Source of the DNA: Okeania sp.
Lineage (GTDB): Bacteria > Cyanobacteriota > Cyanobacteriia > Cyanobacteriales > Microcoleaceae
Assembly (NCBI RefSeq): GCF_035285525.1
Contig: NZ_JAYKGW010000196.1
Coordinates: 1 to 5,522, forward strand
Direction: 5' to 3'
DNA length: 5,522 nt
Part shown: positions 1 through 5,394 of the stretch, piece after piece
Layout: every line of letters starts with the position of its first letter
How positions within the stretch are numbered: the first letter of the stretch is position 1
Notes under the pieces: model-generated
What the model was told of the DNA's origin: nothing
The model's input: the letters and a program-made list of their open reading frames with translations, nothing else
Database searches by the model: none
Made by a program: the position numbers and the translations under genes

Positions 1-50
1 ATGCATTTTCTTAAGCACCCCAACAGAGGTGATGAGTGATGAATTTTTCC

Positions 51-73
51 ACTATTGTTCTATACGCAATAGT
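51..73. repeat. Inverted repeat (hairpin) ACTATTG-N9-CAATAGT in repeat copy 1, loop ttctatacg
   Basis: Arms at 51-57 (actattg) and 67-73 (caatagt) are perfect reverse complements. The loop is 9 nt. The hairpin is followed by taatgcattttctt. Confidence 0.7.
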
Positions 74-197
74 TAATGCATTTTCTTAAGCACCCCAACA
101 GAGGTGATGAGTGATGAATTTTTCTAACTATTGCGCAAATGAGAAGTTTCATTTTCTTAAGCATCCCAACAGAGGTAATGAGTGATGAAATTTTCCC

Positions 198-220
198 ACT
201 ATTGTTCTATACGCAATAGT
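198..220. repeat. The same hairpin in repeat copy 3, loop ttctatacg
   Basis: Arms at 198-204 (actattg) and 214-220 (caatagt). The loop is identical to that of copy 1. Confidence 0.7.
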
Positions 221-273
221 TAGTGCATTTTTTTAAGCACCCCAACAGAGGTAATGAGTGATGAATTTTTCCC

Positions 274-296
274 ACTATTGCGTATAGAGCAATAGT
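274..296. repeat. The same hairpin in repeat copy 4, with the loop in reverse-complement orientation (cgtatagag)
   Basis: Arms at 274-280 (actattg) and 290-296 (caatagt). Loop cgtatagag matches the reverse complement of ttctatacg (cgtatagaa) at 8 of 9 positions, but matches the direct loop at only 1 of 9. Confidence 0.7.
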
Positions 297-487
297 TAAT
301 TCATTTTGTGAAGCACTCGCTAGAGGGGATGAGCGGACATTAGTAAGTCTTATTGGCGGAACATTTCTACACCGAAAACTCAGTCATATATTACTTTAGT
401 ACAGGTAATTTGGGTTTGAGGAGTATGAGAAACAGAAATCACTGCTACTACTTTTAACTTGCGTGTAGCGATATACTTCCTCAAGAT

Positions 488-636: not shown

Positions 637-3600
637 ATGGAAAAAGTTGAAATGGTAAATAAACAACCTCAACAACTAGCAGTAACTACTGGATTTTTAG
701 ACCAAGTAGCAATAGAAAATGAAACTATTTGTTTAAGCGGATGGGTTATCTCTTTTGAGTCTGAACCTGTGACTAATTTTAAGATTTTATTTGGTAGTAA
801 ACAATTAACAGAATTTTCATTAACTCAAGGTATTCCTAGTCCTGCGGTTAAGAAAGCTCATCCAAATATTTCTGCTGCTACTAATGCTCGGTTTATTATT
901 AGGTTGCCGATGAATAAAGAGCGGCAAGAGGAATTTAAAGATGCTCTAATTATTTTAATTCCTTTAGTAGAAAATCGTGAGGGAGAACCTCTGTTAAATG
1001 CTGTTACTCCAGCTTTATCTTCTGCGATTAAAACACCAAAAGCAGATAATATACCAACTACTACTCCGCAAGTAGAATTGATTTCTGTTCATGTACCAAA
1101 AGCTGCTGGAACTGCTTTTAGACAGATTTTATTACAGGTTTATGGAACTCAAGGAGTTCTGACTGATAAAACTGATATGTTTGAAGAAAATATGCCAGCT
1201 AGTATTCATTGGCAAACTAAGGTTATTGAGGGTCATTTTCGAGCTGGTAAATACGATGAATTATTTCCTAATGCTAAGAGAATTACATGGTTTAGAGAAC
1301 CAGTTCGGCGGTTAATTTCTGATTATTGTTTTCGTCATATATCTAATCCAACAAAAGACCATCTAAATAAAGACAAGTTATTAAAGTTTGCTCAAGGTAA
1401 TAGTAATTTGATGGCTTATTGTGTGAATGGTAAGTCTCTAGATTATTTTGATTTTGTGGGAATTACTGAATATTTTGCTGAGGATTTATTGGCATTGAAA
1501 AATCTTTTGGGTTGGTCTGATTATGAGGTGGTTTATCAAAATAGAAATCCTTATCCAGAGTATGTTCAGTTTCAAAAGGAAGTTTTTTCAGATCAAAAGT
1601 TAATGGATAAATTAGCATCAGCTAATAGTCAAGATATGGAACTTTATGCTGCTGCTTTGAAATTAGCTGAAGGAAGAAGGAGGAAGGAGGAAGGAGGAAG
1701 TGCTATTAGTTTACTAGAGAAAGATATAGTTAATTTGGATCGGCATCTGGTTACAGAAAAAACAGAGTTATTACCAACATTTGGTTCTCTTGATAAGGCA
1801 GAATTTGATAATGAAGAATTACGACTTGTAGGTTGGGTGGTTTCTCCTGATTCTGGGAAAGTAAAAGGTTTCAAATTAACTATTGGAAATACTAGAATAG
1901 AAAAGTTTGAAGCTGCTTTAAATTTGCCTAGTCCAGATGTGAAAAAATTGCGCCCCGATCTGAATAATTCTGGTCAATCTAGATTCCGTATTAAGGTACT
2001 TCTAAGTCAAGAACAAATTTTACAATACCAAAATTCTCAGATTGGTTTAATTCCTATTTTTAAAGATGGTGAAGGTAAGGTTTTATTGAAAGGGTTGGGT
2101 AATTCCAAAACAGCTACTTTTTCTGAAGCTCCCCAAGTTTCTGAACAACCAAAACTTATTGCTCCAATTGAAACAATTACAACAGTAGGTCATTTAGATC
2201 AAGTAACAATTTCTAATCAAAGTTTAGTTATATCTGGTTGGGTAGGTTCTCATAATTTTGGTTCTGTAGAGGGTTTTAAGGTTGTTATTAATGGTGAAAA
2301 ATTTGCTTCTTTTGCCAAAAAATTAGGTTTACCGAGTCCAGATATAGCAAAGGCTCGTCCTAAACTTAATAATGCTAAAAGTTCTCGGTTTCGCCTGGAA
2401 GTTTCTCTCTCTCCAGAACAACTTCAGAACTGTGAAAATTCTCTAATTTCTCTAACTCCAATATTTCAAGGAAAAGAAGGAAATATTCTGTTTAAATTAT
2501 TTAAACCTTCTCTATCTATTCCTGATGATAAATATATAGGTGGGGGCAAAAATAATTTTATTCCCAGAAGCTTTAAATTTTTAGGCAATTTTATCCAGAA
2601 TGTCGGTCTTCAACCCACTGCTGAAGTTTTAGAAATTGGTTGTGGAATTGGGAATATTGCTTATGGTCTTTCCTATTATTTAAAATCTCCAGGACGTTAT
2701 GCAGGATTTGATTTTTCTGAGGAGTTAATATCTTGGGCGCAGCAAAATATTACTACTGAAAAACCTCATTTCAAATTTAGTCGGATAGATTCAGATTTGC
2801 AACTTCCCGATGATGAGAAAAGTTTTGATTTTGTCTTTATTAATGCTCGGTTTACTCAGGTGGGTGGAAGTGAAGTTCGTAATTATTTAGAGCAGGTTTA
2901 TCGAGTTTTAAAACCGGGTGGTCGTCTGTTATTTAATTGTTTTTTGGTTAACCAACAGTCAGAGAAATTAATTGCTCAAGGAAGGAGTTCTCAACCTCTT
3001 GTTCATCGACTTCAGGAAGGTTTTGCTAAGGACAAAAATGCTATAGAAAAAGGTATGGGTTTTCTGGAGTCTTTATTGTTGGAGTGGGTGAATAATGCTG
3101 GTTTTAATATGTTAGGAAAATCCTATGGTTCTTGGTGTGGTAGAATTGGTTGTACAAGTTATCCAGATATGTTGATTGTTGAGAAGGAAGAAGTAAGGAA
3201 GTCAGAAGTCAGAAGTCAGAAATCAGAAGTTGGTATTAGAAAGGAAGAAGTTAAGAAGTTAGAAGTTGATGTTGAGAAATCAGAAGAAAGTCAGTCAGAA
3301 GTTAGTATTCAGAAGCAGGAAGAAGTTGCGAAAATAATTCCTGAAACTACTCCTTCTATTTCTCCTTTACTTACAGAAATAATGGCTGATTTGGAAAAGT
3401 CTAAAACAGATATTCAAGAAATGGAAGCTGATTTAGAAAGGTTCAAATCTAGAAAGAAAAATACTTCTAATAAAAATTTATCGGAGTTGGAAGCACAAAC
3501 TCCTATGAAAAAAAAAAGTATAACTGAGGAGATAGAATTAGATACTATTTTGTCTGGGGTTAAAGACCAAACCCCGACGGTGGAAACAATTTCTAAACCA

Positions 3601-5394
3601 GTAGAAAAAGTTACTATTTTGTCTGGGGTTAAAGACCAAACTCCGACGGTGGAAACAACTTCTACACAAGTAGAAAAAGTTACTATTTTGCCTAAGTTAA
3701 GAGACAAAAATTCTGAAGCAAAAGAACAAGAATTATTAGGTTTATCAGGAGTAACGGTTGAAAAGTTTTGGGAAATTATTAATCCAGTAATTTCAAACAT
3801 AGATGGAAAAAGAGATGTTTCTCAACCTGCTATTAGTATTCTGACTCCTACTTGGAATTCTTCTTTAGATTGGTTTGTCGAAACAGTTTTAAGTGTTTTA
3901 AACCAATCTATTATTAACTGGGAATGGTGTATTGTTGATGATTGTTCTAAACAAGAAGAAATTAAAAATGTTCTGGTAGGTTTAGCAGAAAAAGAACCGA
4001 GAATTAAAGTTCTACTTTCTGAAGAGAATGGTAATATTAGTGCTACGACAAATAAAGCTTTAAAAATGGCTACAGGAGAATTTATTTGTATGTTAGACCA
4101 TGATGATACTCTCGCACCTACCGCTTTAGAAGATAGTTTAAATAAGTTAGCGGAAGGATTTGATGTGGTTTATTCTGATGAAGATAAAATTGATTTTTCT
4201 GGATTAAATTATGTCGTTCCATTTTTTAAACCTGACTGGTCTCCTGAATATTTTCGTGGTGTAATGTATGTTGGTCATTTATTATGTGTACGTCGAGAAA
4301 TAGCTTTAGCTGTTGGAGGTTTTAACAGTCAGTTTGATGGGGTGCAAGACTATGAGTTTATGTTACGAGTTTCTGAGCAAACTAATAATATTGCTCATAT
4401 TCCTAAACATCTTTATCATTGGCGACAAGTGAGGGGAAGTTTATCTGGAGATCCTGATGCTAAACCGGGTATTGAAAAAGTACAACAAGCTGCGGTTAAT
4501 GCTCATTTACAAAGAGTTGGTTTACCAGCAAAAGCGGAACCTGGTTTGGGTAGACATTTGGTAAATATTAATCCTTTCCCAAGAAAGAATTTTCCTTTGA
4601 TGAGTTTGATTATTGCTTCTCCTAATATTTCTGAAAGTCTCAATCAATGGTTGGAAAAATTCTTGTCTCTTTCTATTTATCCCCAAAATGAAGTAATTAT
4701 AGTTGGTGAGAATGTAGAAAAAGATGTAATTAAAAATCCTCATGTGAAGGTTTTAAGTTTATCGGATAAGTTCACTTATTCTCGTGCTTATAATTTGGGT
4801 GCAAAAACTACTAAAGGTGAATATTTTGTTTTTCTAAATACTGATTTAGAACCTACAGTTAATGATTGGCAAAGACATCTTTTATATTATGCTGAACAAC
4901 CGGATATTGGTGCTGTGGGAGGATTTTTAGTTGCGCCTAATGGAACTGTTCAACACGCAGGTATTGTGTTAAGAAAGTCGGAAAAAGTTAATTATGTGAT
5001 GCAAGGTTTTCCGACTAATGATTATGGTTATGCAGGTTCTTTGGTTTGTGCAAGAGAGGTGTCTGCTGTGAGTAAAGATTGTTTGATGGTGAGTCGGAAA
5101 AATTTTGAGTTAGTTGGAGGTTTTAATAAGTATTATCATTCTAATTATCCGGATGTTGATTTATGTTTGAAGTTGCGAAAAGAAGGTAAACAAATTATGT
5201 TTACTCCTCGTTGTGTTTTAATTAACCGTAAGTCAGAGGAAGATATACAGGAAAATTATGATTTTCTTGATTATGAGTTGTTGTTAGAACAATGGCAAGT
5301 TAATCTGGAGTTGGGAGACCCTTATTATAATCCTAATTTTGATGTTGAAAAGAATGATTATTCTGTCTGGAAGAAGGAAGACAAGGAAGACTAA
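637..5394 (+). CDS. Multidomain glycan-biosynthesis/modification protein: sulfotransferase, class I SAM-dependent methyltransferase and two GT2 glycosyltransferase domains, with a triplicated 104-aa domain of unknown function
   Basis: A 4758-nt open frame in AT-rich DNA, where the other five frames are full of stops. Enzyme motifs appear in a sensible order: HVPKAAGT and FREPVRRLISDY, then VLEIGCGIGN, GFDFS and LKPGGRLLF, then ISILTPTWN, DDCS, DHDD and YSDEDK, then FLNTDLE, GTVQHAGIV and YPDVDLCLKLR, and finally DPYYNPNF. No TM-length hydrophobic segment is visible. The start is uncertain between ATG 637 and the in-frame ATG 652, and neither has a strong RBS. The stop is TAA at 5392-5394. Confidence 0.95.
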   Translation: MEKVEMVNKQPQQLAVTTGFLDQVAIENETICLSGWVISFESEPVTNFKILFGSKQLTEFSLTQGIPSPAVKKAHPNISAATNARFIIRLPMNKERQEEFKDALIILIPLVENREGEPLLNAVTPALSSAIKTPKADNIPTTTPQVELISVHVPKAAGTAFRQILLQVYGTQGVLTDKTDMFEENMPASIHWQTKVIEGHFRAGKYDELFPNAKRITWFREPVRRLISDYCFRHISNPTKDHLNKDKLLKFAQGNSNLMAYCVNGKSLDYFDFVGITEYFAEDLLALKNLLGWSDYEVVYQNRNPYPEYVQFQKEVFSDQKLMDKLASANSQDMELYAAALKLAEGRRRKEEGGSAISLLEKDIVNLDRHLVTEKTELLPTFGSLDKAEFDNEELRLVGWVVSPDSGKVKGFKLTIGNTRIEKFEAALNLPSPDVKKLRPDLNNSGQSRFRIKVLLSQEQILQYQNSQIGLIPIFKDGEGKVLLKGLGNSKTATFSEAPQVSEQPKLIAPIETITTVGHLDQVTISNQSLVISGWVGSHNFGSVEGFKVVINGEKFASFAKKLGLPSPDIAKARPKLNNAKSSRFRLEVSLSPEQLQNCENSLISLTPIFQGKEGNILFKLFKPSLSIPDDKYIGGGKNNFIPRSFKFLGNFIQNVGLQPTAEVLEIGCGIGNIAYGLSYYLKSPGRYAGFDFSEELISWAQQNITTEKPHFKFSRIDSDLQLPDDEKSFDFVFINARFTQVGGSEVRNYLEQVYRVLKPGGRLLFNCFLVNQQSEKLIAQGRSSQPLVHRLQEGFAKDKNAIEKGMGFLESLLLEWVNNAGFNMLGKSYGSWCGRIGCTSYPDMLIVEKEEVRKSEVRSQKSEVGIRKEEVKKLEVDVEKSEESQSEVSIQKQEEVAKIIPETTPSISPLLTEIMADLEKSKTDIQEMEADLERFKSRKKNTSNKNLSELEAQTPMKKKSITEEIELDTILSGVKDQTPTVETISKPVEKVTILSGVKDQTPTVETTSTQVEKVTILPKLRDKNSEAKEQELLGLSGVTVEKFWEIINPVISNIDGKRDVSQPAISILTPTWNSSLDWFVETVLSVLNQSIINWEWCIVDDCSKQEEIKNVLVGLAEKEPRIKVLLSEENGNISATTNKALKMATGEFICMLDHDDTLAPTALEDSLNKLAEGFDVVYSDEDKIDFSGLNYVVPFFKPDWSPEYFRGVMYVGHLLCVRREIALAVGGFNSQFDGVQDYEFMLRVSEQTNNIAHIPKHLYHWRQVRGSLSGDPDAKPGIEKVQQAAVNAHLQRVGLPAKAEPGLGRHLVNINPFPRKNFPLMSLIIASPNISESLNQWLEKFLSLSIYPQNEVIIVGENVEKDVIKNPHVKVLSLSDKFTYSRAYNLGAKTTKGEYFVFLNTDLEPTVNDWQRHLLYYAEQPDIGAVGGFLVAPNGTVQHAGIVLRKSEKVNYVMQGFPTNDYGYAGSLVCAREVSAVSKDCLMVSRKNFELVGGFNKYYHSNYPDVDLCLKLRKEGKQIMFTPRCVLINRKSEEDIQENYDFLDYELLLEQWQVNLELGDPYYNPNFDVEKNDYSVWKKEDKED
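685..996 (+). other. Domain X copy 1 (aa 17-120), unknown function, possibly a beta-sandwich or carbohydrate-binding module
   Basis: Aligns without gaps over 104 aa to aa 381-484 (36/104 identical by hand count). Shared motifs are TxGxLD, GWV, FK, PSPxV/IxK..P, RF, IP and EG..L. Confidence 0.7.
1072..1671 (+). other. PAPS-dependent sulfotransferase-like domain (aa ~146-345)
   Basis: ISVHVPKAAGTAF (nt 1090-1113 encode HVPKAAGT) resembles the hxPKxxGT 5'-phosphosulfate-binding loop of the Sulfotransfer_2-type family. WFREPVRRLISDY resembles the RxPxxRxxSxY 3'-phosphate-binding motif, and EGHF supplies a candidate catalytic His. The assignment rests on motif memory, not a search. Confidence 0.7.
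1669..1703 (+). repeat. Heptamer tandem repeat GAAGGAG x3 perfect (1676-1696), with imperfect flanking units, inside the CDS
   Basis: The sequence reads gaaggaa gaaggag gaaggag gaaggag gaagtgc. Three perfect units total 21 nt, so the frame is kept, and the region encodes EGRRRKEEGGS. It sits exactly between the sulfotransferase domain and domain X copy 2. Confidence 0.9.
1777..2088 (+). other. Domain X copy 2 (aa 381-484)
   Basis: Gap-free 104-aa alignment to copy 3 with 48/104 identities by hand count (TFGSLD..GWV..GFK..LPSPDVKKLRPDLNN..SRFRI..LIPIF..EGKVLL). Confidence 0.75.
2182..2493 (+). other. Domain X copy 3 (aa 516-619)
   Basis: TVGHLD..GWV..GFK..LPSPDIAKARPKLNN..SRFRL..LTPIF..EGNILF. 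See copies 1 and 2. Confidence 0.75.
2554..3180 (+). other. Class I SAM-dependent methyltransferase domain (aa ~640-848)
   Basis: Motif I is VLEIGCGIGNIA (nt 2626-2655). The acidic post-I residue lies in GFDFS. FDFVFINA is motif II-like, and VLKPGGRLLFN is the typical motif after it. Confidence 0.85.
3200..3234 (+). repeat. Heptamer tandem repeat AGTCAGA x3 perfect (3200-3220), plus aatcaga and a partial unit, inside the CDS
   Basis: The sequence reads agtcaga agtcaga agtcaga aatcaga agttggt. Three perfect units total 21 nt and encode KSEVRSQ. The repeat lies at the start of the linker after the methyltransferase domain. The following ~100 nt hold many degenerate NAGAAGT copies. Confidence 0.9.
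3508..3517 (+). repeat. Homopolymeric A10 tract inside the CDS (codons KKK+S after Met957)
   Basis: The sequence reads atg aaaaaaaaaa gt, with ten consecutive A at 3508-3517. Confidence 0.95.
3544..3692 (+). repeat. 69-bp tandem duplication (3544-3612 and 3613-3681), plus the first ~11 nt of a third unit, inside the CDS linker
   Basis: The two units differ at 4 of 69 positions by hand alignment. They encode TILSGVKDQTPTVETISKPVEKV and TILSGVKDQTPTVETTSTQVEKV. The third unit starts actattttgcct and then diverges. Confidence 0.95.
3829..4431 (+). other. GT2 (GT-A fold) glycosyltransferase domain A (aa ~1065-1265)
   Basis: ISILTPTWN (N-terminal beta-strand), VDDCS, DHDD as the DxD motif (nt 4096-4107), YSDEDK, GGFN...QDYEFMLR and LYHWRQ. 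This is the pattern typical of the N-terminal half of two-domain GT2 O-antigen/S-layer glycan transferases. Confidence 0.85.
4594..5241 (+). other. Second GT2-like glycosyltransferase domain B (aa ~1320-1535)
   Basis: MSLIIASPN, YSRAYNLGAKTTKGEYFVFLNTDLE, IGAVGGFLVAPNGTVQHAGIV, VSAVSKDCLMVSRKNFELVGGFN and YPDVDLCLKLRKEGKQIMFTP, followed by the DPYYNPNF tail. It matches the common C-terminal GT2 half, which I remember as LNxD...QHAG...EDVDLCLR. Confidence 0.75.

Follow-up and report, generated by a model that had tools for sequence, protein, structure and literature searches.

RDV-type beta-sandwich modules in front of the tailoring domains of a large cyanobacterial sulfotransferase, methyltransferase and glycosyltransferase protein: candidate acceptor-binding adaptors

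RDV repeats, initially reported from GtfA of L. reuteri 121, are the "FNIII-type" (fibronectin type III) domains in the N-terminal region of GH70 glucansucrases from Lactobacillaceae and are defined by the consensus R(P/N/S/T/Q)DV-x11-12-S/AGY/F-x17-22-R(Y/F)S (2024 survey, PMC11299179). A second described domain with the same hallmark residues is the C-terminal domain of EfAmi1, a prophage amidase of Enterococcus faecium, which was lost from the crystal and which its authors propose to be a new carbohydrate-binding module, or CBM (PDB 8C4D). Here we describe a module of about 115 residues that occurs three times in one 1585-residue protein of Okeania sp., encoded on a contig of 5,522 nucleotides (NZ_JAYKGW010000196.1, assembly GCF_035285525.1; the whole stretch is referred to as the window). 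One copy stands directly N-terminal of a sulfotransferase domain, one directly N-terminal of a methyltransferase domain and one between these two units; two glycosyltransferase domains of the GT2 type complete the protein. Profile comparison places the modules in one superfamily with RDV repeats from lactobacillus GH70 glucansucrases and repeat arrays from Gram-positive autolysins. We propose that they may act as glycan-binding adaptors, a reading to which we assign a probability of about 0.48.

The three copies are encoded by positions 685-996, 1777-2088 and 2182-2493 of the window (amino acids, aa, 17-120, 381-484 and 516-619), exactly where the initial annotation of this DNA had placed them. 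They align without gaps over 104 residues, with pairwise identities of 36, 35 and 48 out of 104, and the computed alignment returned the two values (36 and 48) that had been counted by hand. The best unrelated pair of 104-aa windows in the same protein reaches 21 identities and gap-free pairwise BLASTP of the copies gave expectation (E) values of 1e-23, 5e-26 and 2e-33, which rules out a chance or compositional repeat. At the DNA level the copies are 53-57% identical and therefore old, in line with the age first ascribed to the duplications. Columns invariant in the three-copy alignment are T8, G10, L12 and D13, followed by G26-W27-V28, F39-K40, P58-S59-P60, K64 and P67, R76-F77, I96, L98 and P100, and finally E106, G107 and L110; these are the shared signature that had been read from the sequence. 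Domain limits from hidden Markov model (HMM) profiles and AlphaFold are slightly wider than 104 residues (aa 10-129, 374-493 and 509-628), and the predicted strands of copy 3 span aa 516 to 621, very close to the limits set in the initial annotation.

AlphaFold2 modelled copy 3 from a 58-sequence alignment with a mean predicted local distance difference test (pLDDT) score of 93.7 and a predicted template modelling (pTM) score of 0.85. Nine strands and a pair of short helices make up the modelled beta-sandwich, and the first helix begins at the "PDI/PDV" motif. On this basis each copy is predicted to be an independently folded immunoglobulin (Ig)/FN3-like beta-sandwich of about 115 residues. 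A disordered linker, one of the outcomes that had been named as fatal to the idea of folded beta-sandwich modules, is ruled out by the pLDDT of 93.7. None of the three copies matched a model in Pfam (E<=10) or NCBIfam (E<=1). Searched by sequence, the PDB returned the C-terminal domain of 8C4D, unresolved in the crystal, as its sole match. Foldseek of the module against the PDB found nothing at E<0.001 and, among the 50 listed of 1843 matches, generic Ig-like sandwiches at template modelling (TM) scores of 0.3-0.5; against viral models (BFVD) the two best matches, each with TM 0.53, were to an Enterococcus phage endolysin and to an uncharacterised protein. Among PHROGs, only phrog_35916 (function unknown) matched, scoring E 7e-15 with a lactobacillus RDV repeat and E 6e-4 to 8e-3 with the window copies. 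RDV-type repeats occur at least twice in this phage protein family.

When a profile built solely from the three window copies was searched against 1.84 billion representative proteins, 294 scored at E<=0.001, of which 128 reached E<=1e-10. One group of homologues, from cyanobacteria and metagenome sequences, covers the full ~115 residues and carries one to four copies per protein, fused to methyltransferases, sulfotransferases or GT2, GT92 or GT1 domains. The other consists of tandem arrays of 3-8 copies in secreted Firmicutes proteins, which match profile positions ~10-88, are accompanied by KxYKxGKxW signal peptides, Amidase_2/3, glucosaminidase, NlpC/P60, Muc_B2 or GH70 glucansucrase domains, and sit at the usual place of wall-binding repeats in autolysins and glucansucrases. 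A Limosilactobacillus protein with a KxYKxGKxW signal and a GH70 domain (P0034) was matched by the three-copy profile at E 9.7e-28 over five stretches. The published RDV consensus, used as a regular expression, matched 116 times in the retrieved homologues, 90 of these inside module matches, and in the array members P0033, P0061 and P0086 the best stretches of the Pfam family Big_7 overlap the module matches. A 58-sequence profile weakly matched EfAmi1 in its C-terminal domain (E 0.0023); together with the wall-binding position of the array homologues, this makes carbohydrate binding plausible. The search with the three-copy profile bears out a statement in the initial annotation, namely that a module of the form G-x-L-D...GW...RxDV...F precedes uncharacterised methyl-, sulfo- and glycosyltransferases. 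The module had also been called a domain of unknown function, and this stands as far as no function is assigned, although the family is a known one, that of the RDV/FNIII-type repeats and in part Big_7.

Beyond profile homology (E 9.7e-28 for the GH70 protein) and the beta-sandwich fold, the window modules and RDV repeats share an upstream D and GW, then x-D-V and then x-x-F; in RDV repeats the Asp and Gly-Trp are described as clustering with the RDV motif in a single patch. The window copies depart from the strict consensus: they read SPAV/SPDV/SPDI-x12-ARF/SRF/SRF, with no R[YF]S, and the arginine that lies in "RxDV" in RDV repeats lies in "xRF" in the window branch. The last ~35 residues, forming two strands, are specific to the methyltransferase- and sulfotransferase-linked branch, and whereas RDV repeats form five-fold extracellular arrays in secreted enzymes, the window copies are presumably cytoplasmic and stand singly or in pairs before tailoring enzymes. 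Big_7 (PF17957, a bacterial Ig domain) scores over the same residues in the three homologous array members, but the window copies give no match at E<=10 (gathering threshold 24.1 bits) and the link runs through intermediates only; the Big_7 model, with 70 positions, spans only about the first 80 module residues. The EfAmi1 domain has all of the hallmark residues (GKLD, AGW, ARPDV, LGF) and stands where endolysins have their wall-binding domains, but the match is weak and concerns an extracellular domain that acts on the cell wall; the model of a related enterococcal phage endolysin matches the module at TM 0.53 only.

Two further comparisons ended in rejection. The C-terminal carbohydrate-binding module of Wzt had been offered as an analogue, and the proposed logic is indeed shared, in that a cytoplasmic beta-sandwich would read a glycan, or the modified end of one. 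In Wzt, however, the module is attached to a transporter (ABC-transporter-dependent O-antigen export) and in the window to modifying enzymes. Pfam gave no Wzt_C (PF14524) match at E<=1, and the 50 Foldseek PDB matches listed out of 1843 include no Wzt chain, so that the analogy holds for functional logic and a relationship is rejected. The GW modules of Listeria (SH3_8, PF13457) have the Gly-Trp dipeptide in common with the window copies and are likewise repeated in Gram-positive surface proteins, but they have an SH3-like fold rather than an Ig-like sandwich and no Pfam match was found; the shared "GW" is coincidental.

Conservation of individual positions was counted over 489 aligned domain instances from both groups of homologues. 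G26 is kept in 488 and W27 in 487 of the 489, D61 in 454, F77 in 443 (F, Y or W in 486), V62 in 430 (V, I or L in 484) and D13 in 417; D13 and G26-W27 are present in all three window copies. Positions 59 and 76 are nearly mutually exclusive in their use of arginine, with the pair (R,G) in 345 domains, (S,R) in 123, (S,G) in 6 and (R,R) in none, and one arginine is found in the patch, at 59 or 76, in 471/489. This covariation indicates that a single patch arginine is kept and appears to have shifted from "RxDV" in Firmicutes to "xRF" in the cyanobacterial branch; modules in front of methyltransferases include both the (R59,G76) and the (S59,R76) state. The two positions fall on the following window residues:

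aa 68 and aa 85: patch positions 59 and 76 of copy 1
aa 432 and aa 449: patch positions 59 and 76 of copy 2
aa 567 and aa 584: patch positions 59 and 76 of copy 3

Copy 1 lacks the patch aspartate D61 and reads SPAV instead (window 838-849, aa 68-71). The corresponding motif is PSPAV here and PSPGV in 89% of the pre-sulfotransferase class, and to judge from these residues the pre-sulfotransferase copy may have changed or lost the site.

The layout of the window protein, established by Pfam, NCBIfam and our own domain searches, places these modules as follows:

637..5394, +: single open reading frame (ORF), 1585 aa
664..1023, +: module copy 1, pre-sulfotransferase type (aa 10-129; profile limits)
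1063..1647, +: Sulfotransfer_2 domain (aa 143-337), starting 5 residues past copy 1 by phmmer limits
1756..2115, +: module copy 2, "middle" type (aa 374-493), present 0-2 times among orthologues
2161..2520, +: module copy 3, pre-methyltransferase type (aa 509-628), a modelled beta-sandwich
2521..2550, +: short conserved linker from copy 3 to the methyltransferase, family consensus P-x-L-P-x-P...GG, reaching into the module end
2551..3132, +: class I S-adenosylmethionine (SAM) methyltransferase (aa 639-832), with copy 3 the conserved "module + methyltransferase" unit
3133..3810, +: E/K/S/T-rich repetitive linker (aa 833-1058), differing in length among orthologues
3811..4506, +: first GT2 glycosyltransferase domain (aa 1059-1290; Pfam/NCBIfam and own searches)
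4537..5316, +: second GT2-like glycosyltransferase domain (aa 1301-1560; Pfam/NCBIfam and own searches)

The modules had been described as bracketing the sulfotransferase, but the arrangement is better put as a module placed directly N-terminal of every tailoring domain, with an additional middle copy that varies in number. Counting a module as directly before a domain where the gap is below 80 aa, the retrieved set holds 53 cases in front of this methyltransferase type, which ends in YGxWCGR, with gaps typically of 10-15 aa, and 19 cases in front of a sulfotransferase. In the window, aa 628 is the last residue of copy 3 and aa 639 the first of the methyltransferase, and the pair has the properties of a compact "module + class I methyltransferase" unit, supported by both the family consensus and a model; the minimal form of this unit is found as standalone proteins of 343-387 aa with module and methyltransferase alone. 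Modelled together (pLDDT 91.7, pTM 0.89), copy 3 and the methyltransferase are predicted to be one rigid, compact two-domain unit. Foldseek of this pair listed no solved structure with the combination: nearly all listed matches cover the methyltransferase part only (~180-220 columns), and the two matches of ~300 columns, to the di-domain AtPMT2, have a root-mean-square deviation of 13-14 A.

The association is not confined to this protein. At least nine proteins of the window genome bear modules, all of them fused tailoring enzymes, and the other copies, some of them divergent, precede two more Sulfotransfer_2 domains, one Methyltransf_24 domain and one FkbM/RfbT-like domain. Sulfotransfer_1/3 domains, too, have modules in front of them in a complete genome from the same genus. 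That one module type serves unrelated catalytic folds suggests that what those domains have in common is either an acceptor or a place in one and the same assembly.

A tree of 112 modules (support values given in pairs) places each copy position in a clade of its own across the orthologues from Okeania, Dapis and Trichodesmium: pre-sulfotransferase (100/94), middle (98/85) and pre-methyltransferase of the big enzyme (91/87). It follows that the triplication is older than the three genera and that each position has been retained. Orthologues carry two to four copies, and the number of middle copies is none in P0015, one in the window protein and two in P0003. The initial view that three copies in one enzyme are unusual does not hold for these orthologues, nor for the Firmicutes arrays of up to eight. 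Compared with two orthologues, the ratio of nonsynonymous to synonymous substitution rates (dN/dS) is 0.25-0.59 for the modules (0.30-0.59 for copies 2 and 3) and 0.13-0.51 for the catalytic domains, with most values at 0.13-0.32 and GT2b reaching 0.51. A match was found in 18 of 301 sampled cyanobacterial genomes, with strong full-length matches almost wholly in the window's own family. We conclude that the module is a real, old, folded and selectively retained domain. A 399-aa metagenome fragment (P0022) contains at least two identical consecutive full modules between partial ones, with a period of 133 aa, which indicates a very recent tandem amplification of a middle-type module.

For the function of the module we favour, at roughly even odds (about 0.48), an adaptor that binds the acceptor glycan, because modules serve unrelated catalytic folds, because their homologues hold wall-binding positions and because of the weak match to EfAmi1. 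One copy would be fixed before each tailoring domain, copy 1 for the sulfotransferase and copy 3 for the methyltransferase; it would bind a common acceptor, most likely the nascent glycan or a glycan end, and present it to the active site, while copy 2, the variable middle one, would contribute avidity or reach. The conserved positions D13, G26-W27, [S/R]59-x-D61-V62 and [R/G]76-F77 form the candidate binding site. Several observations weigh against this proposal. Ig/FN3 folds bind proteins as often as glycans, and the listed Foldseek neighbours are generic Ig-like domains (TM 0.3-0.5). The two arginine states largely track two big clades, so that few independent relocation events lie behind the covariation, and the relocation could equally keep a fold-stabilising salt bridge. 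With Asp61 lost from copy 1, the three copies are not equivalent and at least one of them cannot use an identical site. The authors of the GH70 survey, for their part, leave the function of RDV repeats open (PMC11299179).

The commonness of protein-protein contacts among Ig/FN3-like folds, together with listed Foldseek neighbours that are Ig-like protein-binding domains, fits a different role, in which the beta-sandwiches drive self-association of the megaenzyme or docking among the tailoring enzymes of the island, as in a multi-enzyme assembly line, and leave the glycan untouched. Such a role would also suit the at least nine module-bearing proteins of the genome, all fused tailoring enzymes and five of them in the neighbouring island (contig C237), and the position-specific clades would suit partner-specific contacts; the pTM of 0.89 shows that the module is able to pack tightly against another domain. 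Yet the same patch is kept in extracellular autolysin and glucansucrase arrays, which have no such partners, and standalone module and methyltransferase proteins are found in contigs without other module proteins. Protein docking is the main rival to the adaptor reading, but we regard it as unlikely.

Less probable still is a structural extension of the catalytic domains, that is, a lid, stabiliser or solubility domain without a ligand of its own, with the middle copy as a spacer. In its favour are a short, conserved linker of constant length and a confident two-domain model; the conserved salt-bridge patch could be structural and nothing more, which the compensatory arginine relocation leaves room for; and the constraint on copies 2 and 3 (dN/dS 0.30-0.59) is looser than on the catalytic domains (most 0.13-0.32; GT2b 0.51). 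Yet the module stands in front of at least four unrelated catalytic folds, forms long arrays and also exists by itself as a small protein, which is hard to square with a fold-specific extension; its middle type is conserved as a clade (98/85). Orthologues differ in how many middle copies they have (0 to 2) and in how far the first GT2 domain lies from the methyltransferase (169-461 aa), as would be expected if modules and variable linker served as a ruler that sets the distances between catalytic centres and hence the placement of modifications along the chain. Spacing alone, however, leaves the near-invariant D/GW/xDV/RF patch unexplained, as it does the 5-15 aa apposition to the tailoring domains and the existence of single-module methyltransferases, and we consider a ruler the most improbable of these explanations.

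The ORF is the only one in the window, which is an entire 5.5-kb contig of a 6.5-Mb genome. An alternative start is possible at position 652, with which a 1580-aa collection entry, 100% identical across the searched N-terminal region, is consistent; the closest homologues of the protein come from Okeania, Dapis and Trichodesmium. A hydropathy scan of the 1585-aa protein in 19-residue windows revealed no apparent signal peptide or membrane span: no window, the N-terminus included, exceeds a Kyte-Doolittle value of 1.2. With no stretch hydrophobic enough for a membrane span the protein is soluble, and the enzyme is presumably cytoplasmic.

Tandem repeats are found at both ends of the contig and within the linker. 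At the contig start, upstream of the ORF, a 76-bp unit is repeated 4.2 times in tandem over window positions 1-316 (82% matches), which probably explains the assembly break there, and from the last ORF codons to the contig end (5374-5522) the 9-bp unit AAGGTAGAC is repeated ~16 times, likely another cause of an assembly break. Inside the E/K/S/T-rich linker, positions 3189-3305 are a run of 7-bp AGAAGTx units and positions 3543-3690 an in-frame 69-bp tandem duplication with the 23-aa unit ILSGVKDQTPTVET.S..VEKVT (94% matches). These repeats and the 169 to 461 aa that separate the methyltransferase from the first GT2 domain among orthologues indicate that the linker evolves by repeat expansion.

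Synteny with the complete genome identifies contig C237, which encodes a 615-aa protein of the type ...sulfotransferase-module-methyltransferase, as the upstream neighbour of the window. The neighbouring island (C237; G274:C1:2243655-2262151 in the complete genome) encodes at least five further module-bearing tailoring enzymes, and a Zeta-toxin/AAA_33 kinase-like gene lies within it (C237 10765-11340, minus strand). No transporter gene was found among the 10 neighbouring ORFs of the 60-kb region that were Pfam-scanned in the complete genome.

The RDV family itself was already known; what is new is a presumably cytoplasmic branch that stands in a one-to-one relation to glycan-tailoring domains of unrelated folds. 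On a broader view, the RDV-type beta-sandwich might be a general glycan-reading module whose patch binds polysaccharide both outside the cell, where it would anchor autolysins and glucansucrases to the wall, and inside it, where a copy for every tailoring domain would enable processive sulfo- and methyltransfer to a nascent polymer by enzymes of unrelated folds. We put this forward as a tentative generalisation that is rather doubtful at present; if it were true, the window protein would represent the first cytoplasmic "CBM-per-tailoring-domain" architecture and RDV repeats would gain a function. The two-domain form of ~350 aa (module and methyltransferase) should be easy to express and lends itself to a search for the ligand of the superfamily as a whole, and the module provides an annotation rule for the "hypothetical N-terminal regions" of polysaccharide methyl- and sulfotransferases. 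For the organisms themselves, the finding bears on how marine filamentous cyanobacteria such as Okeania and Trichodesmium pattern their sulfated and methylated surface glycans.

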